DNA of 64,000 bases from the NCBI GenBank assembly GCA_000165345.1, contig CM000435.1:384001-448000 (forward strand). The letters are read 5' to 3'. Positions within the stretch are counted from its first letter, which is position 1, and each line of letters starts with the position of its first letter. Under the pieces are notes generated by a model, which was not told the DNA's origin, searched no databases, and saw nothing but the letters and a program-made list of their open reading frames with translations. Positions 13,986-58,788 of the stretch are shown here, piece after piece. The position numbers and the translations under genes were made by a program.

Positions 13986-14296
13986 TCCCAATTTTTTTAT
14001 TCAATTACTTTAAAATTTATTATGTTTTGCCGTTTTTTTAAAAAATTTGCACAATCATATTATAATATTCTTCCACATGCAAAACATACTTGCATTACCG
14101 GTACTAAAATTATTCACTGTTAACATTTTCATCCACATGGAAAAAAGTAATTATTGCATGCAATATAAAAATAAATACACGTAATGACAGCCAAAATATA
14201 TTCAAAAAAAAGAAACTAAGGAATAAAGATTTTTCTTATATATAATTTAATTAAAAGTTTATAGCAGGGCTAGTAGTAGTTAAGGTTCAAGTTAAA

Positions 14297-20200: not shown

Positions 20201-21626
20201 CGAAGCTATCAGTGAAGTCCTTGAACTTGACTAAAGCAAATTTAAGAGAATCTTCACCCTTATTAACAGAACTTCGTCTTCTCTTTAAATTATTAGCAGT
20301 TGTAGCACATGTTACTGAACTTGCTTGTAGCTTATTACTAGTGAAAATCTTCTCTGAAAGTTCATTGTTCTGTAACAAGCTATTAATATTTGAGCTTATA
20401 TAGCTTTCATCCAAAGTAGGGTCTTCACTTAATATCATTTTTGTGAGTTTATTTTTCATTGACGTAATTATCTGAAGTCCCAAAGTTTTGGATAGATTAT
20501 ACTTTTTCGAGTAAGTTTGTAAATAAAACTCAATGAAGGGAAACATCAACAAAACCTCTTTCTCAGATAATCCAGCAACAAATAAAGGCTCACCCCATGC
20601 AGTTGTAGACTGATCCACAGAAGGATTTGTATCCTTGCAAGCTTTCTTAGTTGGACTTGAAGTCTCGCTAGCAGGCTCTGGGCTCATTTCAGGAATCTGT
20701 TCGGAAGTTTGCTCCTCAGTTTGCTGCTTTGAAACTGGTTTATTAGATGATTTGTCAACCAATTTCCCAGTAACCTGATCAAGGAAAGTCTTGTATCCAA
20801 TTCTATTTGAGTTTGGAGAAAGTAAAGTCTTAATAAGTCTTGAAATAACTTCAAACTTGACCTTTGCAGATGAAAATAACTTGACGTATTTGCTTGCTGG
20901 CCAACACAGCCTATAGCAAGTTTTTGTGCTTCTATTTTCAGACATACTATTGACCCATATATGTGGTGTATCAAACAGATTACCTCCAAATTCAATAGTC
21001 CAAGAATGTATTTTACAAGTAATCTGGAAAGTCTTCAAGTCTCCCTGCTTTAAAATTGACTTTGGCATTTCCTTCATCTTTTTTGGCTTGTAACTTCCCC
21101 CACCTTTTTGGCGAATTCTCTGTAACTTCCTAAAGTTGTCTTTAAGAATATTAGTCTTTTCTTTCTCATAATTTAAAATATATTCAAAAGGGATCAAAGT
21201 ACCAACAAGAGTTAGTTCTTCAAAACTTTGATCATCTTGTGATTTCTCTGTGGCTCCCATATAATTCGAATCAACATTCACTTCAGGATCTGCTGCCTTT
21301 ACAAAAGAATCAAGGGTTCCCTCCTCATTCATAAAATAAATACTTTCAAATTTATTTGGTAAACAGTCTAAGGGCATCATCCTGGAAAGTTTGTTATTGT
21401 ATATCGAAAACTCTGCAATGTATCTATAAGTAATACCATAGTCTCCGCTCAATGTTACCTCTTCTGGAATATCATCTTCAGATGTTAACTCATGTTTAAG
21501 CTTAAAGGCTCCTCCCTCACTTGTATTACTTGACAAACTTGAACGCTTCTTTTTGTTGAAATTCTTACTATTGCTACTACTACTACTAGTATTATTCTCA
21601 TTCAAATTCGAATTTAAGCATGCCAT
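17250..21626 (-). CDS. Large hypothetical protein of at least 1458 aa, with no motif I can name. The 5' end may extend to an ATG near 21862 across N-containing sequence.
   Basis: Uninterrupted 4.4-kb ORF. The last 9 codons overlap the last 10 codons of tRNase Z on the opposite strand. Sequence upstream of 21626 contains NN gaps and an in-frame TAA. Confidence 0.55.
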   Translation of the reverse strand: MACLNSNLNENNTSSSSSNSKNFNKKKRSSLSSNTSEGGAFKLKHELTSEDDIPEEVTLSGDYGITYRYIAEFSIYNNKLSRMMPLDCLPNKFESIYFMNEEGTLDSFVKAADPEVNVDSNYMGATEKSQDDQSFEELTLVGTLIPFEYILNYEKEKTNILKDNFRKLQRIRQKGGGSYKPKKMKEMPKSILKQGDLKTFQITCKIHSWTIEFGGNLFDTPHIWVNSMSENRSTKTCYRLCWPASKYVKLFSSAKVKFEVISRLIKTLLSPNSNRIGYKTFLDQVTGKLVDKSSNKPVSKQQTEEQTSEQIPEMSPEPASETSSPTKKACKDTNPSVDQSTTAWGEPLFVAGLSEKEVLLMFPFIEFYLQTYSKKYNLSKTLGLQIITSMKNKLTKMILSEDPTLDESYISSNINSLLQNNELSEKIFTSNKLQASSVTCATTANNLKRRRSSVNKGEDSLKFALVKFKDFTDSFGTCQKILKISDFCHSFGDFLELPIYSSSLLSIQSFQSKSFVLEKSKCISLEILNQVYLELNKVIGKLREERASGLISQEGLCSLIKVVQAFPQNTLFSTIKCLVNAISEKVFNLKKNNTEDSSQTVKTSPSIKRSYSSFRNDSEHSDSESDLKSSEIKLKLLDTLSINKSSIDCVSWPVILDLLLAKMNESSMNELSDYLDESTFDDYNSGEQLIVEETKMESCDITPNQNSPSQSKKQDKNNSLCALNSESFFEILNWSIDTLGSGKIGKEFIDNAFNSQKKKINIGRNDNFIGVDRFSNKYFLFNNINTQNTLYKSVIIVSSCMEGLNNKYISHSTPCTNPLCTLSAEGNLPYNLVSTPEVAEIQNFLRLNSTSATISSKPVVKSTEPNYKFVSKKKEIETLINSLCEDHFCEFQLKLKLKSAFNGKEFEHETFNSAKYVQECIGNNKPVFVPFNISLLRIDQEKQFFYFSVINIIKEITTIYLKITLPMVVCANNDTQTHFSILDKIFALSTQVFGQFTKGVDVTYYSSQETFKQITILIKQICETTMDSLETFGIQLDKQTSQKHSLWIRELDALGGIHPPEGETQIPLGDIITSSFNKRISIIAAYLKIWMQSIVPSDLITISTGGSISYELSGFNQDSILTSRSGFVYNKEEFISIIGKNYEKKLDYIEKQIPDQMDQFYYFKSGHFLVNLSWMNSILTKNRKVNGAMLRFIEKFTEIPAHMANIEKIKVMNICYNVGNLANNNQSAEIDSNNNTQEDNEVTIYPFILINCQVTPRLNSSCTDELVELVDNLKESFENIQHLNIEHFSRKRTSNRIKNNNLSNSYRDAMIADSTFTIAESRETFIKKNLSYDQESQNETRYISLILPLDLITQNNGLPAGRLSHLQRRSFEIFNFRPTTPFYIIREDIFKSSIKEITEKSSFKVSYNLGEKTHNGFIRRIIIEDYDVWDCMIVESDDSKKNKDCVLVCLNLWQIISN

Positions 21627-24796: not shown

Positions 24797-27700
24797 TTAG
24801 GAATGTTTAGAATGAGCGAGTTGATCGGGAGAGACCAAAACTAGCATCTCTTTAAGAAGCTTATGAATTTTTTCTGCAGAGCTTGACTGAATGCTATACA
24901 TCGAAGTAAGAGAATTTACCAGAGAATTAATAATATGGAAGTTGCAGAAAATGGCATTATGAACATCATCTGGAATGCTACTACCAGCATTGTCGTTTCT
25001 GCAAAGCTCAAACAGTGACACTACATAAGCTTCAATAATTTTTGGTAAGAATCCCACATTTGAAGAGTTTATTCCACTCTCCGACTTTGGGATGAAGTTC
25101 TTTGATTCTATATATTCTTTAGCTGAGCGATAGAAACCCTTTTGAATCAAAACAAATGCATGCACAATCTCATTCAAATATCTAACTTCATCCAACTTTG
25201 TCTGAACTGCAAGACCTTGTTGTAAATAAGAAGAATCTGTAAAAACTTTGTTTATGATGGTCTGTAATTTGTCAAAGAAAAGTTGTTGTCTCGTATTGAG
25301 AGTTGTAAAAGAATAACAAACTGGAAGTCTCAAGCAATCTAAAATTGTGTCCAAGACCTCCTCCAAGAGGTTTGCTTCCATGAAAAATAGAATTGAAGTA
25401 ATATAATGGCCCCTATTTTTAGCTAATCTTGCTATAATACTGTTTATTTCTTCACATATTTCAGAGTATTCACTTGTATTCATACTCTCATATGTATCAA
25501 ACTTAACAAAAGACTTTCCTTGTTCAATATAAGTATGGAAACTAGCACTATCAGTGTAATCATCTTCAACAATATCATGTAATAGACTGAACTCTACATA
25601 ATCCTGTAATATCTTTGTTCTCATTGATTCTGGGAAAAGCCTTGCAAGCTTTGCAACAAAAGGGAAGGGAATATTAAAGTTTTTAATTGATTTCTCAAGA
25701 ACTTCATAAAGGCTTAAAACCCTATCTTCTGGCTCAATCTTGTCAGAAAATGAAGAGAAGACCCCAAATTGATCATTTTCTATTTTTTTCCAAAGTGGAA
25801 TTAAACCAGCAACTGCTAAGTAAAGAACCCACTGAAGTTGTATGATTTTTAATTCATGATGACAAGAATAAATCCACCTCATTGCCTCCCCAAAATGTAA
25901 AGTGTAGCACATTAGTCTTGCCATATTGAGATTTGTCTGTTCTTTTACCATTCTATCATTCTGATTTAACTCATTCTTATCTTCTTGTCTAGATATAGTT
26001 CTTTCATGTAAATGAGAATTCTGGCTACGATTTAAGCTTAACTTAGTGCTTCCTGCATGAGCATCTCCTCTTCTGGATGTATGAGTCAATAAGAAGGGGC
26101 TAACCTCTTCTTGAGAGTGAATGGATAAATCCCGGCTTGATGATTCTCCTCCATAGGAAAATTGGTCTACCTGGTTTCGAAGTCTATTATACAAAGTATT
26201 TAATTCCTTTGCTGATTCATTGTCATCATTAGTCTTAAGGATAATATGAAGTTGATACCAAATATAATCTTCCATATTTGTATTAGGAAGAAGTTTCATC
26301 ACATTCAAAGACTGAGATGAAACGTTAATTATACTGAAAATAACTTGATAATAGGCTTGTTCTCTAAAGTCTGCATCCTGGCTTGGTTTTGAGTAAAACA
26401 TAGAATTCAACTCTCTATATTCTCTGCTAGAGTAAAGGTCTCTATTAAAGTCAAATTGTACGCATTGCTTAATCCAATTCTCCTCACCTTGAACAATATC
26501 ATCATATGTTTGAGAAATTAAGAGTGAACTACTTGTTGAAAGAAGTATTGCTGCTAAACATTTACATACCAAGGAGAAATGTTGAGGTATATGAGAGAAT
26601 TTGGATGCCATATCCCAAAGTATTTGACCAGACCCAATTCTAAATGCCCAGTAAGCCAAAAACCAATAGTGAACTTGTTCGCATGGGAAATTCATATTGT
26701 AATTGATATTTCGTTGGTCTGTTGACTCACTTATGAACAACTTTCTACAAAAATTGGTAAAGTTCTTTAAGGAAATAAGTACACTACTTCCTACTCCTGA
26801 GCCATATCTGTTTCCTAAGAAAATGTTAGAATTGTGATACAAAACATTATCAACAGCAGAAACTTCTAAAGCTCGAATTGAATTAGAAATCATCTGACGA
26901 GTTGTATAATTGTTCTTTGAGGAATTGCCAACTAATAGTGTCAAAAGTCTCCATAGTAATGAAATTTCCTCCTTGTATTCAACAGGAGCCAATAGAGAAC
27001 CCATTTCTTGAATCAACTGGATACGAGAATTGAAGGAAGAAAGACACATTTTCTGAATAGATACATATTTGTCAGAAGCTAAATCAGAAACAGTAACATT
27101 TGGAATAATCTCAGAAAGAACATAATAGTACTCATTAATAGAGTCTTCAGTTCTTCTAGATCCTCCAACTCCTTGCTCTTGTATTGTTTCAAAGTGTGGT
27201 TTTCTAGGATTAAGTAAAAGTCCAAATTCTGATTTGGTTGATAGATGAGAATTATCATTACAATATCCTGATACTATATCCTGTTTTTGACCATCAAGGA
27301 TCTTGGATTTTCTTTCATTCCATTCTGTGAAAAATAAATCAAAGACTTCTGAATAATAAATCTGGAAAATAGACGTAGTAGATTCATCTATCAAGTATGA
27401 AAGAAAATTTGAATAGCTAGTTTGAAGATACTTTGGCAGTCCTCCTGATCCTAACTCACTATAGTTGTCTTTATCCTGCCCACAGCCTCCTCTATGAGGG
27501 GCCCTTTTGAAATTAAAAGCTTCTGCTAAGTATCTCCTTTTAGAGTCATAACTTTCCAGTCTAGAGCTAAGATATTGGATTGAACGCTCAAGAGTTGTAA
27601 TTCCCAAGTCATTTACTATTCCCTTCCCACTACTTGCTCGTTTTGACACACCAAAATACCCCGGCTCTTTTTGCTTACTTCCAAGAGAATCCCTTGAAAC

Positions 27701-27805
27701 ATCCAAAAGCTCTTTAATTCCACTCCAAACCACAGGCTTTAGTATTGGAACTGTCCTATATGCTCTTTCTAGGGAGGAATTTATGTCCATTGAAAAGTTT
27801 GACAT
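24797..27805 (-). CDS. Large alpha-helical hypothetical protein of 1002 aa. Possibly a solenoid scaffold or nucleoporin-like, but unassigned.
   Basis: Intronless ORF with ATG at 27805. It has no enzymatic motif and is helix-rich with aromatic periodicity. An E2F-like site lies 66 bp upstream. Confidence 0.55.
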   Translation of the reverse strand: MSNFSMDINSSLERAYRTVPILKPVVWSGIKELLDVSRDSLGSKQKEPGYFGVSKRASSGKGIVNDLGITTLERSIQYLSSRLESYDSKRRYLAEAFNFKRAPHRGGCGQDKDNYSELGSGGLPKYLQTSYSNFLSYLIDESTTSIFQIYYSEVFDLFFTEWNERKSKILDGQKQDIVSGYCNDNSHLSTKSEFGLLLNPRKPHFETIQEQGVGGSRRTEDSINEYYYVLSEIIPNVTVSDLASDKYVSIQKMCLSSFNSRIQLIQEMGSLLAPVEYKEEISLLWRLLTLLVGNSSKNNYTTRQMISNSIRALEVSAVDNVLYHNSNIFLGNRYGSGVGSSVLISLKNFTNFCRKLFISESTDQRNINYNMNFPCEQVHYWFLAYWAFRIGSGQILWDMASKFSHIPQHFSLVCKCLAAILLSTSSSLLISQTYDDIVQGEENWIKQCVQFDFNRDLYSSREYRELNSMFYSKPSQDADFREQAYYQVIFSIINVSSQSLNVMKLLPNTNMEDYIWYQLHIILKTNDDNESAKELNTLYNRLRNQVDQFSYGGESSSRDLSIHSQEEVSPFLLTHTSRRGDAHAGSTKLSLNRSQNSHLHERTISRQEDKNELNQNDRMVKEQTNLNMARLMCYTLHFGEAMRWIYSCHHELKIIQLQWVLYLAVAGLIPLWKKIENDQFGVFSSFSDKIEPEDRVLSLYEVLEKSIKNFNIPFPFVAKLARLFPESMRTKILQDYVEFSLLHDIVEDDYTDSASFHTYIEQGKSFVKFDTYESMNTSEYSEICEEINSIIARLAKNRGHYITSILFFMEANLLEEVLDTILDCLRLPVCYSFTTLNTRQQLFFDKLQTIINKVFTDSSYLQQGLAVQTKLDEVRYLNEIVHAFVLIQKGFYRSAKEYIESKNFIPKSESGINSSNVGFLPKIIEAYVVSLFELCRNDNAGSSIPDDVHNAIFCNFHIINSLVNSLTSMYSIQSSSAEKIHKLLKEMLVLVSPDQLAHSKHS

Positions 27806-27880: not shown

Positions 27881-28407
27881 AGTGTGGTGCTGATGGGATT
27901 AAGAAAATAATAATTAAATATTCAAAAAGCGAGAAGGAAAAAAAAACAAGGAGCTAAAATATAGAAAATCCTTTTCAAAAATTTTCTTGATGCCTCACTA
28001 ATGGACTAGTTTTATAAGTTGAGAGTCTCGCTAGTATTTACTCCGAGTTGAATCATAAGTTTCTATACAAAATATCTTGCTTATTTTACCTACAAAAGTT
28101 AACTTGGCTATCCTATTCTGTCAACATGCATGAAAAATACGCCGGTATTCAACTTGGCAAAAAATTAATTTTTTTAAATTCGAAAATTGTTAAAAAACAT
28201 TGTGGCGCTAAAACAAGTAGTGTCTAATAGTCAAAAGAGATTATTTTAAAATAAAGAAAAGGCAAAGAAGATTTTCCGGTTAAGTTTGGAGAACGAAAAT
28301 AGAGAAAATACCAGTCTTTAGGAGATCATACTAAGATACTTAAGGTTCTGGTTAATATTTTGAGTAATTATCCACTTTTGTTATAAGTGTTATATATATT
28401 TATATAT

Positions 28408-35142: not shown

Positions 35143-36377
35143 TTTATGTCCTATTTTGTTTTTAGAAAACTCTCTAACCGATATTTATAGCCTTTTCAAT
35201 TTTTACTTGATCATAGACTAATTCGAATAATATTTTATCTTTTCATTTCTATTGTTACCTTGGTAATACTAAGTTAAAATGGCGGTAACTTTAAAAATTT
35301 TAATATATTTACTGCGTAATATTTTATCAATTCGAATCAGAAAATAATACAAAACAACACAAGTAGTCAAGAAGGAGCAATGACTCAGACGATTAGTTTT
35401 TTATTAAAATAATATAGGAAGAGAAAATATAAATTTTTTTCCTCCTCCCGTAGTTATAAATTCCCCTTAATTTTTTTGTTTTTAGAATTTAACGATCTGT
35501 TAAACCTGGAACCCTCATTTTCTTTCTCCCATATTCACTAATCATCCAAAATCAACCAAATTACGAGCATATTTGCATGCAAATATTCTTACACGTATTT
35601 CCTTTTTTTCATGTGGACAATTTTTTTATACCGGCATTGCAAATATGTCATAGAAAAAGTTGCATGCTGCAGCGGTAATGTCACAATGTTAGCTTGAAGA
35701 ATTTCTTAAAAAAATATGGGAATTTTGTGAAATTGGAGAAAATGAAAAATTAAGTAGAGATTGACATAAAATTAAAAGTATTAGGGGAATTAAGTGAGAA
35801 TGAGTTGACAATATTGAACAAATTCAACATAATTTATAAGTTTGAAATATGGTTTTTCTTTTTTAAAATGAGAAGCATTTTCGAATAAGAATTGGTCCCG
35901 GACCTTTCCTAGAAGAAAATAATAAATATAACAATAATTTGATATATATATAAGTAAAATTTCAATAAAATAAGGAGATTCTATAAAGTATTATATTTGG
36001 TGGCTATTTTTTTAATAATATTTTTAACTCATTTTAAGACAGAGGCTTGGGTAAAAAATAGAGGGAGTCATAAATATATAAATAGAGTTTAAATTTCCAG
36101 TATTAACAAATAAAATAAAAGGATCTTTAAAAGAAGAATTTTTTAAGTTTTTTGGTTTTTTTAATTTGTTATTTACTGAACTATCATTAAAGTGTGTGAT
36201 ATTATTCACCCAAGTAGGTAATTTAATATTAAAAAATTGGTGCAAGCTATAGTCGTATACAGAAGAAAAAAATCCATAAAATTTAAACTATAAGCATATA
36301 ATTTTGGTAAATTAAATCATTAATCTCTTATTATTCTTTGAAACAAACAGTCTGGATTTTAATTAACAAAGTTAGAA

Positions 36378-43235: not shown

Positions 43236-44264
43236 TTAATCAATTGGATCAATAATTCCTCCATCAGAAAGCTGAATTACGCACTCAGATTCTGGCAGAT
43301 GTGGAGAGCCATAAACTTTACATACTCTTTGCTCGCCCTTACCTTTTCTTAAACTAAGCCTTACATGTGAAGCATGACCAATTACGTGTCCACCAACAGG
43401 TTTTGCTACATTCGGCATGAAACTCATACCTCCTGCAGGGTCTGCCATAACATGATTTGTCATAACTATCGCAATATTGAATTGATCAGCCAATTTATTC
43501 AGCTTACTTAATGTTTTATTCAAAATCTGTTGTCTCTCTGCTAACTCTCCTCTTCCTGAGAATTCAGTTCTAAACAATGCAATAATAGAATCCACAATTA
43601 AGAGTGCGAACTTTTCTTCAATCATTTTTCCTGCTGCTGCGCTAATTAACTGATTCAAATGTTCGTGAGTATATGCTCTTGCGTACATGATATTGTCTAA
43701 AGCAACGTCTCCCTGAACACCAAATCTTTCTGCTATCTTTACAATTCTCTCTGGTCTGAAAGTACCTTCAGTATCAATAAAACAGACTTTCCCATTACCT
43801 CCATTCATTTCTAAAGGGAGTTGTGCTGCCACACATAAAGTATGGCAGATCTGAGTCTTCCCGCATCTATTTTCACCAAAAATTTCTGTAATACACATAC
43901 TTTCAAATCCGCCCATCAACATTTTGTCGAACTGCTCACTTCCTGTTGTGATTCTTAAGATATTTTGTCTTCTACTCATGACCTCACTTCCAGACTGAAA
44001 ACTTGATGACTGATCTAATTTTTGTGCTGCTTCTACAATCTTCTCAACTTTTGCCTCAGAAAGACCTTTAATATTACATAATTCCTTTTTGGTTGCTTGA
44101 ATAATGCTTAAAACTGTGCATAAACCTGCAGTTTTCAACTTATTAATATCTGCAACATTGATTCCTGCTGATTGTAATTTATCAATTTCTACAAATGCTT
44201 CTTCTTCAACTCCTTTAGCAGAAACTTGTTTAGCTACTGATTTTGATTGGCAAAAAGCACTCAT
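43236..44264 (-). CDS. DMC1: DMC1-type meiotic recombinase of the RecA/Rad51 family.
   Basis: N-terminal HhH: [22 protein letters not shown]...[22 protein letters not shown], which matches DMC1 (…GINVADIKKLKSVGICT…[22 protein letters not shown]). Walker A is GENRCGKTQ. Later motifs are [26 protein letters not shown] and [25 protein letters not shown]. Confidence 0.8.
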
Positions 44265-44833
44265 TTTTTTTTAATTTAATTGGACTCTTCTTCCCCCTTA
44301 TTTTCTTTTTTTCCGGATTTATTTGTTTAATTTATTGACTGACCATTTATTACATGCGCTATCATCCACTTAAAAATAATCATCGAATTATTGTCAAATT
44401 CGCATGCAGAAATTCCTTTAATGCCGGCAAAACAATTATTTAAATAATTGGATGGGGAAAGGTTTTTTGTTATTTATAAAGTGAAATTAAAAGCAAATGA
44501 TCAAAACAAACTTCAAATTGCAATATTGTCTTTTATTATACATTTCAAGTTAAACATACTTTGCTTTTGTATTTCCTTAAAAAAACGAGCCTGAACGAAT
44601 TTCTTAGATTCGTCTATATTTAAAAAATAAAATTGCATGTAACCGTTCAAAATAATTGTATAACTTGCGCGCGCTGACCATTTTGCCCCCCTCCCTATGA
44701 TTAACGCATTATCTTTTTAAGTCCCAAATATGCTTTTTGCCCTCATAGCAATAACGTCCGCTTGATTTGTATACATTTCCAAAAAAAAACCGCTTTTAGA
44801 ATTACTTCTGTAATTTGTGTACATATTGCTAAA

Positions 44834-46804: not shown

Positions 46805-46830
46805 CTTTCCCGCATATTTGCATGCATGCA
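46805..46830. promoter_or_regulatory. Composite TTTCCCGC plus TTTGCATGCATGCA element in the divergent H2B/ThrRS spacer.
   Basis: ctttcccgcatatttgcatgcatgcaggc. Confidence 0.45.
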
Positions 46831-52357: not shown

Positions 52358-55300
52358 TTAGGCCAAAACCTTATCGGTATCAAATCTATGACTGCATTGA
52401 GCCTGGCAAGCTTTGACAACTATTCCTTGGATATCCTTTTGCACTCCATCGAATGCACTATTGCAACATAAATCACAAACCTCAATTTTGCACTTTTGAT
52501 CAGTTTCTGTACAAATGTCAAAGGCTTTACTAGTTCCAGAAATACATGTAGCGAGCTGATTAATGTATTCCTTTGTTGAATTTTCAGCATAGCTATCATT
52601 AATTGAACAAGCACTCTTGCATGAATTATAGTATGTTCTGTCTGTAATCATATTTGTGTAGTAATCGCAACATTCAGTACAGTAGTTATTAGTACAAGTG
52701 ACCGACTTTTGTGAATTAGATCCAAACATAGTTTCACAATGTTGTTCTCTCTGCAAAATATGAGTGTTCAAAGTACAAGATTTATAGATAGAATCAGTTT
52801 TCTCTTTATCTGTAGAATTTTCGACATCTTTATTGGAGTCAACTCTGAAAGGCTCAAGAGAGACTTTATCAAAGGCTGTTTCAGAACAGTTTTTGACACT
52901 AAGTCCTACTCTACCATGTGAGACTTGAGTATCTTTTTCGGTGACCTTAATAATCTCCTTAGTATTTCCATTGTACTTTGTTGAGTAAACATAGATTGTT
53001 GTACCTTCAAAGTTTACAAGAATACGATTCCATTCATTTTGTGTGAAACCAAACATGACCTTCTTTAACAGAGTAGTTTTAGCTTTAGTTTTCTTAACCA
53101 AAGTTGTGGATGTGTTTGAAACAATAACCTGATAATAATTGTCATTGTCAGTATATCTGAAAATTCCGGATACCTTTCCATTAGAACAAGGTGGATTAAA
53201 ATCGAAGGAGAAATAACCATTTTTGCAAGTATGAGTTTCTTTTAAGAGTATTCTAGATTCACCAGATGTCTTGACAACCATTGCATTGGTTCTTCCCTTG
53301 TATTCCTTAATATATTCCCAGTTACCATTAACATCGTTATTTTTAACAATATCATAAGTTGTCTCAAATGTTGATAAGTAACATTGTTTATAATTTGAGC
53401 ATCTTGGAGATCTTGGAGCTGGTGACATGAAGAATTTTTTGCAAGATTTGGCCTTAATTGAAACATTATCAAAGTATACGCCGCCAACGACTCCATTTGA
53501 ATAGAATGCAACAGTACCTGAAAGTAAGCCTTCATCTACAACTTGAAGTTTAACATGTCCAATCTTTGCGTAAATTCTATCTCTTTGTACTGTAATCTCT
53601 ACTTTTTGGAACTCTCCTTCTTTGAATTTGAAATCTTCTTTTGTATCTAAAATGTAAGTAATACCTTCTTTAAGTCTTAATAGTCTAATTCTCTCTTCTT
53701 CTTGGTTGAACTCAAGCAAATAGTAATTAGATAAGTCTCTAACTCTAAATGCAATACCAAAAATACCTGAGACTGGTGGATAGACTTCAGTAGTTAATGT
53801 AAAATCAAAGAATCTTCTGTTCTTAATTTGTGCAAAGGTTCCTCTTGGTGAATGTTCCGATGAACCAGTGATTGGAGAATTCTGTCCAAGCAACTTAGTT
53901 CTTCCATTAATTGCTGTGGTTGTATAACCCCAATCACTTGGTCCTCTTTGGGTTCTTGGCATATCATATACGGAAAATGTTTGTTCAAATGGCATTTTCT
54001 GTGTGTCTAATGTGAAACTTTGGAATCCAGTTTGTGAAGAGTGAATTGCTTCGACGTCGTCTAATTTATCAAGAAGTTCCTTAGTTATTGATTTATATAC
54101 ACCAGTAACCTTTAATAGTTCGTTTGCAATATGATCGACATTGTCAACAACATCCATTATCTTTGGTGATTGTGATTTTGTTAACATTTCTGCTGGCTTT
54201 AGTTTTCTTCTCATCTCTAATATTGCCATCTTTGACTCTTCTTGAGTTGCAAAACTTAAAGATGGATCCACACCATATGACTCATCAATATATTGTGAAG
54301 CTTCCTTCAAAATTTTACTAATGAAAGGCTCATTTGTTTTTCCTTCCCATAAATCTGTTTTGATAACTGGAGTGGAGACTTTAACTGGATTTTGTAATTT
54401 TTGTCCTTGTTTTGCCTGTTGATTTAGAGTTGTAGCGGTAGAGAGTTGATGTAGATCATTTCCTCCCTTTGAAATAACATCAATTGGACATTCCTTTGAA
54501 ATAGTACTAATTCTTAAACTTCTAGTTGGAATGCCTGATAATTTTTCTGACTCAATTTCATTCTTAGTTGATCCTTCGTATGAATTCTTTGGACCTTCCA
54601 AAGCTACATTGAACATTCCTCCTGTATTTGTAGAAATTACTCCAACTTGTAAAGCAGCTTTGCAAATTGAACTTTTTTCTGAGTAAACACCATCGCTTCC
54701 ATAAACCTTGGTTTTATACTCTGCACAACCTGGTGGGCATTGTACAATGATGTTTGTGTTAATTGGTCCTTCGAATATTGGATTTTTATATGCAACAGTG
54801 TCACAATCAATATCAACGTGATTAATTTGTTTTTGAGTTGGTACCACATTTGTTGAACAAACAATTCCAACAATATTTGAATTTTTTAAGTTGAAGAAAC
54901 TTAAATAATTTTCACTGAATCCAAGTCCTACAGCATCGTTTCCAAATAATGTTGTAGCAGTAGATTCTGGAGATGCCAAAGAGAGAACCAAGCTGGTCAG
55001 ATCTGTTGTTCCATCTCTTAAATCTTGATATGATCCTGTGCACTTTCCATCTAAACAACCATAATCAACAGCCAATGGAATACCGCTACCTTCAGATAAT
55101 TTGAATCCCATAATTCCTAATGCGCTCTTGATTCCAGAAATTTGTTCAATATTTCTAAGTACTAATGGCTCCATTCCAACATGTGCACAGTACTTTCTTA
55201 TATCTGAAACAGATGTAACTGAAATATATGATCCTGGATTTCCACCATCATTCCAAATATAATATGATGCTCCAAACTTAATATCACACCATACTCGAAT

Positions 55301-57028
55301 AGGTTCTGGAGCACATCTTGGTAATATCCAGTAGAAACCAGAAATTGCATTTGGATTTCTTGAAGCAATTGAAAAACAATCTTCTGCTGGGAGATTTGGC
55401 TCATCCCCCGGCTCATTTCCAACTCCAACAGAAATTTCGTCCTTAACTGCTCCTAAACCTTCTTTTAATTGTTTAGCATTTGAAATATAATCTTCTAAAC
55501 GGGATACATATTCTTTCTTATCAGTAAAACATTCATCAATCGATGGAAGCAAAGTATTAACTCTATCATTTAACACTCCAAGGTTTTTTGTTCTGGACAA
55601 AACATCTCTAGCTGCGCTCTTTACCATTTCAGATGCCTTAGAATTAAAATCTTCTACATAATTCAAAAAGTATTTATCTCTTGCATCTTTTGATAAGGCA
55701 GCATCTCTACAGAATGAAACCACAGATCTTAAATTATTTGTCATTAATTCAATTTCTCTAATACCATACAAATATTTGTTGGAGTATTTACCATATCTTG
55801 GATGTGGCTTTTCCATGACAATCTGAATGAAATCTGAAATTACTCCGTTCATCTCATTCAATGTTGTATTTGATGGATTACCCTCAACCTTTGTAATCTG
55901 TTTCATTTCGCCATCTACCTTTGCTGCGATAGAATAAGTAAATGGAGGAAATTCCCAATCAATTCTTAAATTTTTAAGTTGATAAGTCATATTAGCTGAC
56001 AAATTGATTGAAACCTTGTGTTCACCAGTACTTTCAAAAGCTGCTGATGCCCAATATGTCGCTATATCACTATCTATTGCTGCATCCACTGTATGTAATG
56101 CATCCATTGTGGAAGAAGCTGTTCCACTCAATTCCAACTTTGTTGTTCCAACTCCGAAACCTGCCTTGTTTATTTGATTAACACATGCATTTGTTCCTTT
56201 AACCTGTAATTGAGAATTTTCATTAAACTCCCAGAATGATCGACCATCTTCAGCCTGTTCTGCAATTTCACAATCTTGAATAAGCAAAGGAGAAGATCCA
56301 CTGAAGTCGCCATTTGCTACGATCAAACATTTTGGAGGATTACTTGCTGCACTGATTATTTGCCCATTTGGCCCCATTTTCCATAATTCTCTTCCATCCC
56401 CTGCAGAAATACCATATACACATGAATCTAAATCTACTTGAGCGAAGTCATCCTGAACTCTACCTCCAATGACCTGTAAGCAGTTGTCCCCTTTCTCGTC
56501 TGTAATTCCCGATATAATCATCGCTAATGGAGAACCTGATCCAAGAGCAACCAGCTGTCTAATACCAATATATTGGCTTGGCTTTGCCTTCATTTGGATT
56601 TTCACTGCTCTCACATCTCTTGAATGGTCGAACATGAAGTCTTCAGTAAATTCCTTCTCGTTCTGAGTTGCTCTTCTATTTGGAACTACAATTTCATAAT
56701 TAATTCCATCAGGAGAAACCTGGATTTGAGTTTCTCTTGGACTTGAGCTCCAAACTATTTTCAAACCAATTGCTTTTGCTGTTGCTGAGATAAAAGCTGT
56801 ATAAACAATTTGTTGTTCTGCTGAGAGGTTACTTGCGGACCTCCACTCGCTATTTCCCATATTCAATGCATTTGATGGGTCAAATTCTCCATTAAAACTG
56901 CTCCCTACTAAAGTTGAGCTAGAAATTGCCTTCTTGAAGAAGTAGTAGTTTGATTCACCATCTTTTGCAGTTACTATAAGAGAAATACTCAAAAATGCTA
57001 ACAAAAATGAAAATGTCTTCCACCTCAT
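52358..57028 (-). CDS. Secreted modular adhesin of the apicomplexan CCp/LAP (LCCL-domain) family. It resembles the 135-kDa Cryptosporidium antigen Cpa135 in size and architecture. Order of domains: signal peptide, discoidin/F5-8C, ricin B, discoidin, LCCL, ConA/levanase-like, Cys-rich tail.
   Basis: Signal peptide MRWKTFSFLLAFLSISLIVTA. Ricin B QxW repeats: DNCLQVIGG...ELWKMGPNGQI...SFWEFNENSQL. LCCL domain: CPPGCAEYKTKVYGSDGVYSEKSSICKAALQVGVIS. ConA-like block: FGIAFRVRDLSNYYLLEF...GTVAFYSNGVVGGVYFDNVSI. The C-terminal cysteine cluster follows. Intronless 4671-bp ORF. Confidence 0.8.
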   Translation of the reverse strand: MRWKTFSFLLAFLSISLIVTAKDGESNYYFFKKAISSSTLVGSSFNGEFDPSNALNMGNSEWRSASNLSAEQQIVYTAFISATAKAIGLKIVWSSSPRETQIQVSPDGINYEIVVPNRRATQNEKEFTEDFMFDHSRDVRAVKIQMKAKPSQYIGIRQLVALGSGSPLAMIISGITDEKGDNCLQVIGGRVQDDFAQVDLDSCVYGISAGDGRELWKMGPNGQIISAASNPPKCLIVANGDFSGSSPLLIQDCEIAEQAEDGRSFWEFNENSQLQVKGTNACVNQINKAGFGVGTTKLELSGTASSTMDALHTVDAAIDSDIATYWASAAFESTGEHKVSINLSANMTYQLKNLRIDWEFPPFTYSIAAKVDGEMKQITKVEGNPSNTTLNEMNGVISDFIQIVMEKPHPRYGKYSNKYLYGIREIELMTNNLRSVVSFCRDAALSKDARDKYFLNYVEDFNSKASEMVKSAARDVLSRTKNLGVLNDRVNTLLPSIDECFTDKKEYVSRLEDYISNAKQLKEGLGAVKDEISVGVGNEPGDEPNLPAEDCFSIASRNPNAISGFYWILPRCAPEPIRVWCDIKFGASYYIWNDGGNPGSYISVTSVSDIRKYCAHVGMEPLVLRNIEQISGIKSALGIMGFKLSEGSGIPLAVDYGCLDGKCTGSYQDLRDGTTDLTSLVLSLASPESTATTLFGNDAVGLGFSENYLSFFNLKNSNIVGIVCSTNVVPTQKQINHVDIDCDTVAYKNPIFEGPINTNIIVQCPPGCAEYKTKVYGSDGVYSEKSSICKAALQVGVISTNTGGMFNVALEGPKNSYEGSTKNEIESEKLSGIPTRSLRISTISKECPIDVISKGGNDLHQLSTATTLNQQAKQGQKLQNPVKVSTPVIKTDLWEGKTNEPFISKILKEASQYIDESYGVDPSLSFATQEESKMAILEMRRKLKPAEMLTKSQSPKIMDVVDNVDHIANELLKVTGVYKSITKELLDKLDDVEAIHSSQTGFQSFTLDTQKMPFEQTFSVYDMPRTQRGPSDWGYTTTAINGRTKLLGQNSPITGSSEHSPRGTFAQIKNRRFFDFTLTTEVYPPVSGIFGIAFRVRDLSNYYLLEFNQEEERIRLLRLKEGITYILDTKEDFKFKEGEFQKVEITVQRDRIYAKIGHVKLQVVDEGLLSGTVAFYSNGVVGGVYFDNVSIKAKSCKKFFMSPAPRSPRCSNYKQCYLSTFETTYDIVKNNDVNGNWEYIKEYKGRTNAMVVKTSGESRILLKETHTCKNGYFSFDFNPPCSNGKVSGIFRYTDNDNYYQVIVSNTSTTLVKKTKAKTTLLKKVMFGFTQNEWNRILVNFEGTTIYVYSTKYNGNTKEIIKVTEKDTQVSHGRVGLSVKNCSETAFDKVSLEPFRVDSNKDVENSTDKEKTDSIYKSCTLNTHILQREQHCETMFGSNSQKSVTCTNNYCTECCDYYTNMITDRTYYNSCKSACSINDSYAENSTKEYINQLATCISGTSKAFDICTETDQKCKIEVCDLCCNSAFDGVQKDIQGIVVKACQAQCSHRFDTDKVLA

Positions 57029-57195
57029 CGTATTCCAATTAATACTTCCCTTTTCTACTAAAATAATGATTTAAAATTACTTGTGTTATTAACACAATAA
57101 AATTTTAAAAATCATTCAACTTTTTTCCAAGTTCTCAGTTAATAACTGCCAGAATTTTTTTTTTGGGTTTTATTTTCACAACGGTATAGGAAAAC

Positions 57196-57222
57196 TGCGC
57201 ATGTGCATGCAAATCCCCACCG
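57196..57222. promoter_or_regulatory. TGCATGCAAA motif plus an ACCGGTA element about 170-190 bp upstream of the adhesin ATG.
   Basis: gcgcatgtgcatgcaaatccccaccggtattag. Confidence 0.4.
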
Positions 57223-57432
57223 GTATTAGAAATAATAAAAAAACTATTTTCAGTTTTTATTTTACATGTAATATAATTAAATTTATAATTATAGCTAAAA
57301 TCCTAAAGTTATAATTTATTCATCAAAAAATGATATATTAGGTGAGGTTGGAATTTTTTTTTCTTTACGAAAAAAAAATTTATTATTAATAATTTGAACT
57401 CTAATAGTAATAGATGATCTTCAAATTATTAA

Positions 57433-58788
57433 TTAGGTATTTTGTGGGATTTCTTTGTATTCAGCTTCTCTCTTGATTTCATCATATGAATTATTGAGAC
57501 TTTCAGTGTAATTTGAAATTTCATTATTTCGATCAAAAAAACTTCCCCTACTTTGCTTCTTCTTAGGATACCCATCTACACTCTTTGATCTCTTTCTTTC
57601 CTTTTTACAGCTATTTTTCTTCTTTTCGTTCTTCGAATTAGTTAAAATTGGCGTTGCATTTGCCTTAGTTTCATCTTGATTTTTTGAGATATTAGCTTCT
57701 ATAGATTTCTTTAAAGCTTCCCTTTGGAATATATGAGACCACAAAGCTCGATATTCCTCATCTCTAGTACAGCCTGGACAATACCAAGTCTTTTGTGGTT
57801 CATTAATTATCTTTAAACATAGAAAATGAAACCAAACACCATAAATACATTGATTTCCAGATTCACATCTAATCATATTGTCTAGTACAGGTTGTTTACA
57901 GAAACAAAATTTGGATGTTTCATCAGAAATAGAGTGAAAATCATTTACCTCAATTTTTGGACTACCAGCTTGAACTGTACAGACTTCTTCCTCAAGAACT
58001 TTTGCTTGAATACGTTTACTTTTGCGGACTTTTAAAGAATTTGAATTCTTTTGTAAATCATTCGACTTCACAGTATCATGATTTGAACTCTCATTAGATA
58101 AATTAACTTTTTGAAGCTTCATAAATGCTTCGCTAATATTATTTCGAAGCAAATTTGTCATTTCAAGTTCATCCTTTGCCCATTGCATTTCAATTGAAGC
58201 ACAATTTTCAATCATCATAGTGATATACCTCAAAATGCTGATGTAAGATCTCAGTTTATACTTCTTTTGCTCGACAGAATCAATTTCAGACACTTCCTCA
58301 ATACTGAATCCGTGATTTCTCTGTCTTTTAGAGTCTTTAGTTAAAACACATTCTTGGAATTGCTGTTCCAAATTCCACATAATTCTTGAAATATCATCTT
58401 CAATATACTCAATACATAACTTTGTATTATATTGAAGCCTTTGGCTTCTACAATTAGGAATTTGTGAGTCAAAGAAGTTAACTCCTTGATTATTAAATTC
58501 CGAATTATCCAGGTAATCTGGAGTAACATCTTCTTTCTCACTCTCCACAACATTCCCGGGAACAGTTTTAACTGAATTCGGAAAACCAGTTGTTATATTA
58601 TTTGAATAAAACTCTGTTTGATATACAGGTTCTTTCTTTTCTTGGTCTTCTGGGGAATACCAACTTGATGAGAACATATAGGGGTAACTGTGGTCTTGAT
58701 TCAACCCCGGTAAATCCGAGAAATCACCTGGGCATCCCCAGGAATGATCCCAGTCACTTTCATCGGACGAAATTGAGGAATCTGACAT
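57433..58788 (-). CDS. ING/Yng-type PHD-finger protein, a candidate H3K4me3 reader.
   Basis: C4HC3 finger of ING type: CFCKQPVLDNMIRCESGNQCIYGVWFHFLCLKIINEPQKTWYCPGC. Compare the ING consensus YCxCxxxSxGxMIxCDxxxCxxxWFHxxCVxLxxxPKGxWxCxxC. A polybasic K/R tail follows, as in ING proteins. Confidence 0.6.
   Translation of the reverse strand: MSDSSISSDESDWDHSWGCPGDFSDLPGLNQDHSYPYMFSSSWYSPEDQEKKEPVYQTEFYSNNITTGFPNSVKTVPGNVVESEKEDVTPDYLDNSEFNNQGVNFFDSQIPNCRSQRLQYNTKLCIEYIEDDISRIMWNLEQQFQECVLTKDSKRQRNHGFSIEEVSEIDSVEQKKYKLRSYISILRYITMMIENCASIEMQWAKDELEMTNLLRNNISEAFMKLQKVNLSNESSNHDTVKSNDLQKNSNSLKVRKSKRIQAKVLEEEVCTVQAGSPKIEVNDFHSISDETSKFCFCKQPVLDNMIRCESGNQCIYGVWFHFLCLKIINEPQKTWYCPGCTRDEEYRALWSHIFQREALKKSIEANISKNQDETKANATPILTNSKNEKKKNSCKKERKRSKSVDGYPKKKQSRGSFFDRNNEISNYTESLNNSYDEIKREAEYKEIPQNT

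Follow-up and report, generated by a model that had tools for sequence, protein, structure and literature searches.

Within the 64,000 nucleotides of contig CM000435.1 analysed here (the window), a reading frame on the minus strand runs uninterrupted from ATG to stop over 4671 nt and encodes a protein of 1556 aa, as recorded in the ORF listing (Table 1). A protein homologue search with this ORF recovered the NCBI entry 'CpCCp1-like protein [C. parvum]' at 100% identity over 100% of the length, and the computed mass of the product, 172,756 Da, agrees with the 172.76 kDa tabulated for cgd7_1730 (PMC9508764), the gene that encodes Cpa135 (PMC6518611). A preliminary description had proposed a complete single exon of 4671 bp whose size and layout matched Cpa135; the first part is upheld by the ORF listing and the database identity, and the second can be put more strongly since, judged by identity and mass, the ORF is the Cpa135/CpCCp1 gene (cgd7_1730) itself, beyond mere similarity. 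As the ORF matches the protein annotated in C. parvum at 100% identity and is collinear with its orthologues, the gene can be read as intronless, while the intact frame, an identity of 59-83% across species and a set of invariant cysteines rule out a pseudogene or an annotation artefact.

Genomic setting

The genes adjoining CpCCp1 are housekeeping genes, and the order Slu7, a PHD-like ORF, CCp1 and a HhH-GPD glycosylase is kept in all three of the other Cryptosporidium species examined, with ThrRS next in line wherever the locus extends that far. CpCCp1 is the only gene for a multi-lectin secreted protein within the window, as had been suggested. The gene is already known, having been cloned and named, its SA35 fragment used as a vaccine antigen and its product re-localised by spatial proteomics, such that the useful outcome for this locus is the correction of a label and the gene itself adds nothing new.

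Table 1. Features of the CpCCp1 gene and its upstream region, in window positions (offsets are relative to the ATG)
Feature	Residues	Positions	Strand	Basis or remark
Complete intronless CDS of cgd7_1730 (CpCCp1, Cpa135)	1-1556	52358..57028	-	1556 aa, 172.76 kDa
Signal peptide, predicted cleavage VTA-KD	1-21	56966..57028	-	hydropathy
Discoidin / F5/8 type C domain 1	40-155	56564..56911	-	PF00754, E 4.5e-6 on segment
Ricin B-type beta-trefoil lectin domain (borderline)	176-284	56177..56503	-	PF00652, E 1.4-1.7e-6
Discoidin / F5/8 type C domain 2	303-412	55793..56122	-	PF00754, E 2e-6
Helical, probably coiled-coil spacer	~440-535	55424..55711	-	family profile
NEC (neurexin/collagen) cap and putative C-type-lectin-like fold, one compact domain	538-738	54815..55417	-	
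LCCL domain	740-831	54536..54811	-	PF03815, E 4e-25 whole protein, E 2e-27 segment
Low-complexity / helical linker	835-1010	53999..54526	-	~175 aa after LCCL
ConA-like / levanase-type (LamG) lectin domain 1	1060-1192	53453..53851	-	PF06439, E 7e-5
ConA-like / levanase-type lectin domain 2	1237-1391	52856..53320	-	PF06439, E 0.0024 on segment
Two Cys-rich ApicA-type modules	1418-1474, 1495-1545	52394..52777	-	Cys spacing
Second conserved upstream block, palindrome TTGTGTT-AAT-AACACAA		57069..57116	-	-88 to -41
Conserved upstream module		57179..57225	-	-197 to -151; cross-species conservation
TACCGTTG of upstream module		57179-57186	-	
Inverted repeat GCATG-CA-CATGC of upstream module		57199-57210	-	
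Octamer TGCATGCA		57204-57211	-	-183 to -176; overlaps inverted repeat
TACCGGTG of upstream module		57218-57225	-	

Modular architecture and family membership

Pfam domain searches were run both on the complete protein and segment by segment. Behind the signal peptide, the modules follow one another in the order discoidin, ricin B, discoidin, coiled coil, NEC-capped C-type-lectin-like region, LCCL, linker, two ConA-like domains and two ApicA modules, and almost every one of them is of a carbohydrate-binding type of fold. The coiled-coil stretch (~440-535), the NEC and C-type-lectin-like region (538-738) and the ~175-aa linker had been absent from the preliminary list of modules; the remainder of that list, namely the signal peptide, discoidin, ricin B, discoidin, LCCL and ConA-like domains and a Cys-rich C-terminus, is confirmed by PF00754, PF00652, PF03815 and PF06439 matches, by hydropathy and by 16 C-terminal cysteines. 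LCCL and ricin profile matches, the absence of which had been named as evidence against the assignment, are both present, the former strong and the latter borderline yet corroborated.

The signal peptide is predicted from a hydropathy scan: residues 3-21 form the sole hydrophobic stretch of the protein (Kyte-Doolittle 1.67), with small residues at -3 and -1 of the putative cleavage site (VTA|KD). The same scan of the whole protein gave no further transmembrane-like segment and a hydrophilic C-terminus, so that by hydropathy CpCCp1 carries a secretory signal at its N-terminus and is not anchored in a membrane. In the whole-protein Pfam scan, two F5/8-type-C stretches flanking the ricin domain together reach 39.9 bits against a cut-off of 28.2, and the region of the second matches CBM32/discoidin structures when the family profile is compared with the PDB (E 6e-6).

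The ricin B domain is real but borderline. On its own, the segment scores 28.7-28.9 bits for Ricin_B_lectin against a cut-off of 29.0, the whole-protein Pfam scan returned no ricin match even at E<=1, and the full-length family profile searched against the PDB likewise missed it. The same segment of the orthologues, however, matches PF00652 in six of six cases (best E 1e-11), and the top PDB match of the ricin-segment profile is the ricin B chain. An AF2 model of the segment, built from six sequences, is of low confidence (pLDDT 56), and its Foldseek matches, those listed being almost all beta-trefoil lectin domains and mostly ricin-type (CBM13, ricin B, abrin), are therefore corroborative only. 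Because segment scans alone recover the domain, a lone whole-protein scan would wrongly report it as absent.

Between the second discoidin and the LCCL domain lie the two least familiar stretches. Residues ~440-535, for which the segment scan found no Pfam domain, are aligned by the family profile with the coiled coils of fibrinogen beta/gamma and of trimeric autotransporters, and are tentatively a coiled coil. The NEC module that follows matches the collagen C-propeptide (E 7e-6) and fibrinogen (E 2e-4) by family profile and COLFI in the segment Pfam scan (E 0.0026), in keeping with the NEC or COLFI/FBG labels that the region carries in the literature (Pradel 2004 among the sources). The nearest known counterparts of the region are the metazoan C-type lectin-like domains (DC-SIGN, dectin-2, tetranectin) and the fibrillar collagen C-propeptide. 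In contrast to the former, residues 538-738 gave no Lectin_C match in the segment Pfam scan and are not assigned to the C-type lectin family on that basis, and on reading the sequence by eye we saw no EPN/QPD...WND sugar/calcium-binding motif at the expected place. The putative C-type-lectin-like fold would add one more lectin-type module to a lectin-rich scaffold.

The LCCL domain is a single stretch that also matches the LCCL domain of cochlin by family profile (1jbi, E 9e-10). The linker behind it gave no family match in the segment Pfam scan; in the orthologue alignment its conservation is low at the start, and residues 930-1010 are conserved. The first ConA-like domain matches the levanase CBM structures 4azz and 4b1l by family profile (E 2e-4), and the second is a further PF06439 stretch in the whole-protein scan. 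For the ApicA modules no Pfam model exists; the 16 cysteines of residues 1418-1545 fall into two sets of eight with the common spacing C..C..C-x4-C-x2-CC-x15/18-C-x3-C, and 14 of them are invariant in the alignment across Cryptosporidium, Babesia and Toxoplasma. When the two halves are aligned locally the score is 30, against 28.8 +/- 5.6 for shuffled sequences, which is not significant, and the apparent duplication is thus read from cysteine spacing alone.

All features of LAP2/4-type LCCL proteins that were compared are found in CpCCp1, these being a signal, ricin B, two discoidin, NEC, LCCL, two ConA-like and two ApicA modules. A word-index search for homologues yielded eight proteins, and an exhaustive search of representatives was needed to bring in Plasmodium and the CpCCp2 paralogue. 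An all-against-all BLAST matrix separates two paralogue groups, one holding CpCCp1 together with P. falciparum Q8IK83, Toxoplasma P0010, B. divergens and Theileria, the other holding CpCCp2 and the Plasmodium 'CCP2' cluster. Summed BLAST bits for CpCCp1 are 755 to Q8IK83 against 430 to the 'CCP2' cluster, with the reverse for CpCCp2, the branch assignment being made from these reciprocal bits. Q8IK83, the best Plasmodium match (E 2e-116, collinear over 956 residues), is probably PfCCp1, given the gene list and the exclusion of the CCP2-labelled cluster. By module set and BLAST grouping, then, CpCCp1 represents the CCp1/LAP2 branch in Cryptosporidium, and the split agrees with the two ancestral LAP2/4 radiations described for the family (PMC11285972). 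The preliminary assignment to the apicomplexan CCp/LAP proteins is sound as regards family, although its 'lineage-specific' and its apicomplexan 'hallmark' are too narrow, as chromerids and colponemids have proteins of the LAP2/4 type too (PMC11285972).

Upstream elements and the AP2-F gene set

A promoter element 170 bp upstream of the gene had been proposed, and a motif is indeed present close by; it reads TGCATGCACA rather than TGCATGCAAA, a difference of one base, and the decamer begins at -183 and ends at -174 from the ATG, its octamer lying 176-183 nt upstream and hence about 6-13 nt from the position given. The window contains the octamer TGCATGCA 16 times, with 15 of these copies lying outside ORFs, and because it is such a generic upstream element its presence is not diagnostic. 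Nor is the exact octamer the conserved unit, as C. felis carries TGCATGTACATGCA, and an AP2-FG-like TGCACA reading of GCATGCACATGC was rejected since it is unconserved in C. felis and C. bovis. What is conserved is the larger upstream module of Table 1, the only block kept in the upstream spacers of all four species, C. serpentis included. A second block, nearer the ATG, is kept in C. parvum, C. felis and C. bovis and only partly in C. serpentis, and is possibly a core promoter or 5' UTR.

The conserved module takes the form of a T[A/G]CCGG[A/C/T] box followed 11-22 nt on by GCATG, about 100-200 nt before the ATG, with the GCATG often part of an inverted repeat GCATG-N2-3-CATGC. The TACCGG box alone is mildly enriched in the window (8 occurrences against 3.65 expected) and was ruled out as a signal in its own right; strong non-randomness is seen only in the composite of TACCGG and GCATG. 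The CCGG box is absent from the upstream motifs of the two Cryptosporidium motif surveys compared.

The same bipartite arrangement, T[A/G]CCGG[A/C/T]-N-GCATG, is kept upstream of CCp1 and CCp2 in all species examined, the TACCGG/GCATG grammar being found upstream of CCp2 in four species, and it is also present upstream of DMC1, an AP2-F-dependent gene within the window.

All three AP2-F-dependent genes inspected (CpCCp1, CpCCp2 and DMC1) thus have the module in common. AP2-F, a female-specific factor (Tandel 2023), carries three AP2 domains, and we put forward tentatively, as a proposal with somewhat less than even prospects, that the bipartite element is a candidate cis-regulatory signature of the female genes that depend on AP2-F, and that two DNA-binding domains may read this element at once. 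Alternatively, AP2-F could share the reading with a second factor that binds TGCATGCA, for instance the female-specific cgd2_3490. Transcription of CpCCp1 would likely be driven from this module, 150-200 nt upstream, through its TACCGG box and GCATG inverted repeat. The module would offer a defined element to mutate in studies of how Cryptosporidium controls transcription in its female stage.

Proposed role and comparison with known systems

CpCCp1 is very probably a female-expressed component of a crystalloid-body scaffold with a role in the transmission stages. Cpa135 is placed in the crystalloid body, which sits at the posterior of the sporozoite, by hyperLOPIT as cited in PMC10865969 and other later papers, and a review concurs on the crystalloid and female-gamete assignment (PMC12246861). 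On loss of AP2-F, the cgd7_1730 transcript falls by a log2FC of -1.542, about 2.9-fold (Tandel 2023 Data Set S1); the analysis code of that study lists the gene with cgd7_300, cgd2_790 and other crystalloid-body genes, a set exclusive to female gametes (Tandel 2023). A finding that speaks against this reading is the abundance of the transcript in vitro 2 h after infection. We propose that CpCCp1 would enter the ER of the macrogamont and assemble there with CpCCp2, CpCCp3 and other luminal partners, via its lectin, LCCL and coiled-coil modules, into a multi-protein scaffold, which would be packed into crystalloid-body vesicles and inherited by sporozoites. Such a scaffold would be required for the maturation of oocysts or sporozoites, and hence for transmission, rather than for recognition of a specific host receptor. 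Complex formation and the part in sporulation are extrapolated from Plasmodium, in which the six LAPs act as one complex and parasites that lose LAP expression have no crystalloid and are blocked, within the oocyst, in forming sporozoites or in releasing them (PMC11285972); the literature searched contained neither a knockout nor a tagged version of cgd7_1730 itself.

An unlikely alternative, though the likeliest of those considered, is that both reported localisations are right at different times, with storage in the crystalloid body followed by release into the parasitophorous vacuole after excystation or invasion. With reference to both localisations, crystalloid and vacuole, Dessens and colleagues suggest that LAPs act in vesicle-mediated exocytosis (PMC11285972), PfCCp proteins occur in the gametocyte parasitophorous vacuole (PMC11285972, Pradel 2004), and Cpa135 abundance shifts within the first hour after excystation. 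Direct evidence for a secretory Cryptosporidium crystalloid body was not, however, found in the literature searched, and the vacuole signal may stem from sexual stages instead of secreted sporozoite protein. Sexual-stage timing in culture is compatible with macrogamonts at 72 h in HCT-8 cells.

That same timing weakens the older view of a micronemal or apical adhesin, discharged at the sporozoite apex to bind host glycans through its lectin modules in attachment or invasion, as the vacuole signal reported at 72 h in HCT-8 cells (Pradel 2004) could reflect macrogamonts. The signal peptide and lectin-type modules (ricin, two discoidin, CTLD-like and two ConA-like) would suit an adhesin, as would the antibody signal at the sporozoite apical pole and parasitophorous vacuole (Tosini 2004, as cited later) and the immunogenicity of SA35, which in a mix with SA40 cut parasite load in mouse pups and was partly protective (PMC6518611). 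Against these stand the move of Cpa135 to the posterior crystalloid body (hyperLOPIT, as cited in PMC10865969), an AP2-F-dependent transcript within the female-gamete-exclusive set (Tandel 2023) and a micronemal localisation never confirmed at the ultrastructural level. The architecture is, moreover, conserved among parasites whose hosts are unrelated, as well as in colponemids and chromerids, which are free-living (PMC11285972, Pradel 2004), and conservation across unrelated hosts was held by Pradel 2004 to argue against specific host recognition. We consider the adhesin reading doubtful in the extreme, and the 'host-interaction' gene of the preliminary description, which follows the view of Tosini 2004, is contradicted by the later hyperLOPIT citations and the female, AP2-F-dependent expression; since the evidence now available favours a role in the crystalloid body and the transmission stages, the label should not be propagated. 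That CpCCp1 is a structural part of the oocyst wall or residual body is the least probable reading, and barely credible, since its place among the 20 most abundant proteins of a wall preparation, with CpCCp2 and CpCCp3, was suspected by the same authors to reflect sporozoite or residual-body contamination (PMC9508764), and wall genes are unaffected by AP2-F loss while cgd7_1730 is affected (Tandel 2023).

From Cpa135/CpCCp1 as described (cgd7_1730; Tosini et al. 2004, Pradel et al. 2004) the window ORF shows no sequence differences, being identical, intronless and of the same module order; only the functional view has shifted since the first description, from microneme to crystalloid body. The paralogue CpCCp2 (cgd7_300), of the LAP4 branch, has the same domain order, yet is only ~30% identical, ~120 aa longer and groups with Plasmodium CCP2; it is likewise AP2-F dependent (log2FC -1.16), with a promoter of the same T[A/G]CCGG[A/C/T] and GCATG grammar. 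Plasmodium CCp1/LAP2 (P. falciparum Q8IK83, 1620 aa) is a collinear, full-length homologue of CpCCp1, at 32% identity over residues 436-1400, and has its module set and paralogue group in common with it (PMC11285972; Pradel 2004), whereas the crystalloid belongs to the ookinete and young oocyst in Plasmodium and to the sporozoite in Cryptosporidium (Tandel 2023).

Identity and domain architecture of CpCCp1

The minus-strand ORF at the centre of this analysis is Cpa135 itself, beyond mere resemblance, since its product shows 100% identity at 100% coverage with a protein that NCBI lists as 'CpCCp1-like protein [Cryptosporidium parvum]', located on a 1.32-Mb contig, its computed mass of 172,756 Da equals the 172.76 kDa listed for cgd7_1730 as CpCCp1/Cpa135 (PMC9508764), and Cpa135 is cgd7_1730 (PMC6518611). 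The preliminary description, exact in coordinates and size, had claimed only a match to Cpa135 and so understated the case; the gene is already known, the family assignment made there is correct, its functional gloss is outdated and its motif detail slightly wrong. Orthologues in C. felis, C. bovis and C. serpentis are 83%, 76% and 59% identical, all collinear, and these species share the gene order Slu7, 451-aa PHD-like ORF, CCp1 and HhH-GPD glycosylase, with ThrRS next wherever the orthologous locus sequence extends far enough. The PHD-finger match of the 451-aa ORF is below threshold (E 0.017, aa 295-340).

Pfam was run twice, on the whole protein and on ten overlapping segments. The whole-protein scan returned LCCL, two stretches of F5/8 type C (39.9 bits) and two of PF06439, and the segment scan resolved the layout in the table, leaving the last 160 residues without a Pfam match; the C-terminal 140 contain 16 cysteines in two units of equal spacing. 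The sole hydrophobic stretch, residues 3-21, fits a cleaved signal peptide in a protein predicted to have no membrane anchor. The signal peptide, paired discoidin, LCCL and ConA-like modules and Cys-rich C-terminus proposed earlier were thus all recovered. Ricin was not found in the whole-protein scan even at E ≤ 1, and the segment match on its own is borderline. We nevertheless accept this domain because the orthologous segments match PF00652 in six of six cases (best E 1e-11), a profile built from the six has the ricin B chain as its top solved structure (E 1e-3), and the 50 listed Foldseek matches of its AF2 model (low confidence, pLDDT 56) are almost all beta-trefoil lectin domains, mostly ricin-type. 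LCCL and ricin, the two profiles set beforehand as the refutation test, are therefore both present, the latter borderline but corroborated.

The gap of ~300 residues between the second discoidin module and LCCL was absent from the earlier list. A family profile aligns residues 460-580 both with fibrinogen, over its coiled coil and the beginning of its globular domain, and with the collagen C-propeptide. A profile of 538-738 (12 sequences) also matches the two, the C-propeptide at E 7e-6 and fibrinogen at E 2e-4, but in each case only within the initial ~50 residues of the profile, which are the NEC module. The AF2 model of 538-738 is a single compact domain (pLDDT 84.8, pTM 0.83), modelled as a C-type-lectin-like fold with an NEC cap; we use this label rather than family membership because the Lectin_C profile had no match in the segment scan. 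The region is named COLFI/FBG in a 2024 architecture paper, and the fold is a modest by-product that deserves note.

Features of the CCp1 locus, its protein and related loci (L001-L003, CCp1 loci of three other Cryptosporidium species; L007-L010, CCp2 loci of four species)
Feature	Position	Strand	Remarks
CpCCp1 ORF	52358..57028	-	uninterrupted; 4671 nt, 1556 aa
F5/8-C, first copy	aa 40-155		segment scan
Ricin_B_lectin (PF00652)	aa 176-284		segment scan, E 1.7e-6; 28.7 bits, cut-off 29.0
F5/8-C, second copy	aa 303-412		segment scan
COLFI	aa 545-586		segment scan, weak
LCCL	aa 740-831		whole-protein scan, E 4e-25
PF06439 (ConA-like), two copies	aa 1060-1192; 1237-1391		segment scan
Second conserved CCp1 upstream block	57069-57116	-	41-88 nt before ATG; palindrome TTGTGTT-AAT-AACACAA
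CCp1 module, C. parvum	57179-57225	-
Octamer TGCATGCA	57204-57211	-
Tandem overlapping TGCATGCA	2852-2867; 46819-46830	+; +	(TGCA)4; double copy
CCp1 modules, other species	L001:2022-2041; L002:2803-2829; L003:2822-2844
CCp2 modules	L007:2343-2366; L008:2354-2377; L009:2342-2357; L010:2386-2420
Rad21/Rec8-family cohesin	L007-L010, about 300-2260	same as CpCCp2	upstream neighbour of CpCCp2, 4/4 species; spacer just 240-300 nt
Rad51/DMC1-family gene	43236..44264	-	Pfam Rad51, 417 bits; matches cgd7_1690
Rad51/DMC1 composite	44403-44429	-	TGCCGGC-N15-GCATG; -165 to -139 from ATG
Further composites, intergenic	14076-14103; 28125-28147; 35630-35666	-; -; +	CCGG box + GCATG
451-aa ORF	57433-58788	-	directly upstream of CCp1; syntenic in 4/4 species
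840-aa ORF	9422-11944	+	no confident Pfam domain
1458-aa ORF	17250-21626	-	no confident Pfam domain; weak WSD/DDT-type and DNMT1-RFD matches

A bipartite module upstream of CCp genes

An octamer does lie upstream of CCp1, as described earlier, at -183 to -176 from the ATG rather than 170 bp away, and the decamer at this site is TGCATGCACA, not TGCATGCAAA. The octamer is the known AP2_1 motif (PMC12246861) and occurs 16 times in the window (0.8 expected), 15 of these outside ORFs, and its bare presence upstream of CCp1 tells little. More is told by footprinting, in which the CCp1 upstream spacers of C. parvum, C. felis, C. bovis and C. serpentis were aligned. A single block is conserved as far as C. 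serpentis, TACCGG ... TTGCATG-(2-3 nt)-CATGC ... TACCG(G/T)TGT; because C. felis lacks the exact octamer, what is conserved is a GCATG inverted repeat between flanking CCGG boxes. The second upstream block, which C. parvum, C. felis and C. bovis share and C. serpentis retains only in part, may belong to the core promoter or the 5' UTR.

The same grammar, T[A/G]CCGG[A/C/T] then GCATG, often GCATG-N2-3-CATGC, precedes the paralogue CpCCp2 in C. tyzzeri, C. canis, C. bovis and C. muris (TACCGGTATACCGGTACTTGCATGTCACATGCATG in the last). All nine promoters (four each of CCp1 and CCp2, and Rad51/DMC1) have the box at -107 to -198, with the first GCATG 11-22 nt downstream. Across the 135 kb scanned, the strict composite occurs 13 times against 0.18 expected, 10 of the copies falling within these promoters in gene orientation; a looser form occurs five times in the window (0.16 expected). 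Oberstaller 2013 has no CCGG-type box in its set of 25 motifs, and the text of the AP2 binding study of 2014 does not mention one.

On loss of AP2-F, the female-specific factor, cgd7_1690 falls (log2FC -1.181; Tandel et al. 2023 Data Set S1); with cgd7_1730 also dependent, two of the 16 such genes in the genome lie ≤13 kb apart here. A link between the module and AP2-F-dependent genes is suggestive, three of the 16 having been inspected and orthologous promoters not being independent. Nor is the composite strictly specific, since three of its sites adjoin genes that the AP2-F list does not include. Of the three further intergenic composites in the table, one lies 320-342 nt upstream of the Nup93-like ORF 24797..27805. 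The module is likewise a modest by-product worth noting.

Expression and proposed role

The preliminary description called this the one clearly lineage-specific, host-interaction gene in the window. It is the sole gene there for a multi-lectin secreted protein, the others in this AT-rich stretch (GC about 29-39%) being housekeeping: NOB1, class II aminoacyl-tRNA synthetase, DHHC palmitoyltransferase, tRNase Z, UDG-superfamily glycosylase, ribosomal L10/P0-type protein, Nup93-like protein, NSUN2, SRP54, KDEL-receptor-like protein, exportin-7, Rad51/DMC1, histone, ThrRS, HhH-GPD glycosylase, Slu7 and P4-ATPase. The weak matches of the 1458-aa ORF hint at a putative chromatin protein.

The host-interaction label does not hold. 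It follows the 2004 original description, which, as cited in other papers, localised the protein by antibody to the apical pole of the sporozoite and to the parasitophorous vacuole, a picture changed by later work. hyperLOPIT, as cited in later papers, places the protein in the crystalloid body. Expression of crystalloid-body genes is reported to be confined to female gametes, and these genes form the chief set lost upon AP2-F ablation (Tandel et al. 2023); cgd7_1730, grouped with them in that study's analysis code, has a log2FC of -1.542 in Data Set S1, with cgd7_300 at -1.164 and cgd2_790 at -1.249. Plasmodium LAPs form a single complex; parasites that lose them have no crystalloid and are blocked in the development or egress of sporozoites (PMC11285972). 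The best explanation is that CpCCp1 would be a soluble multi-lectin scaffold protein, produced in macrogamonts, joining other CCp proteins in assembly and stored in the crystalloid body to serve oocyst or sporozoite maturation, the steps beyond signal peptide and modules being drawn from the literature or Plasmodium analogy.

Comparison with other CCp/LAP proteins

Searched exhaustively with HMMER, residues 436-1400 matched 1424 representatives at a threshold of E ≤ 1e-3, of which 94 reached E ≤ 1e-30. All-against-all BLAST of 10 representatives separated CpCCp1, P. falciparum Q8IK83, Toxoplasma protein P0010, B. divergens and Theileria from CpCCp2 (the cgd7_300 orthologue), Plasmodium CCP2, Toxoplasma protein P0006 and two other Babesia species, a split that matches the two ancestral LAP2/4 radiations of PMC11285972. 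The CCp/LAP assignment stands, although not as an apicomplexan hallmark, the LAP2/4 type being present in chromerids and colponemids (PMC11285972). All modules listed for CCp1/2 by Pradel et al. 2004 (ricin, discoidin, NEC, LCCL, levanase-type lectin and two ApicA modules) are found in CpCCp1. Its top Plasmodium match, the CCp1 candidate Q8IK83 (1620 aa, E 2e-116), is collinear and 32% identical, whereas the CCP2-labelled Plasmodium cluster is a more distant match (27% identity, E 1e-59).
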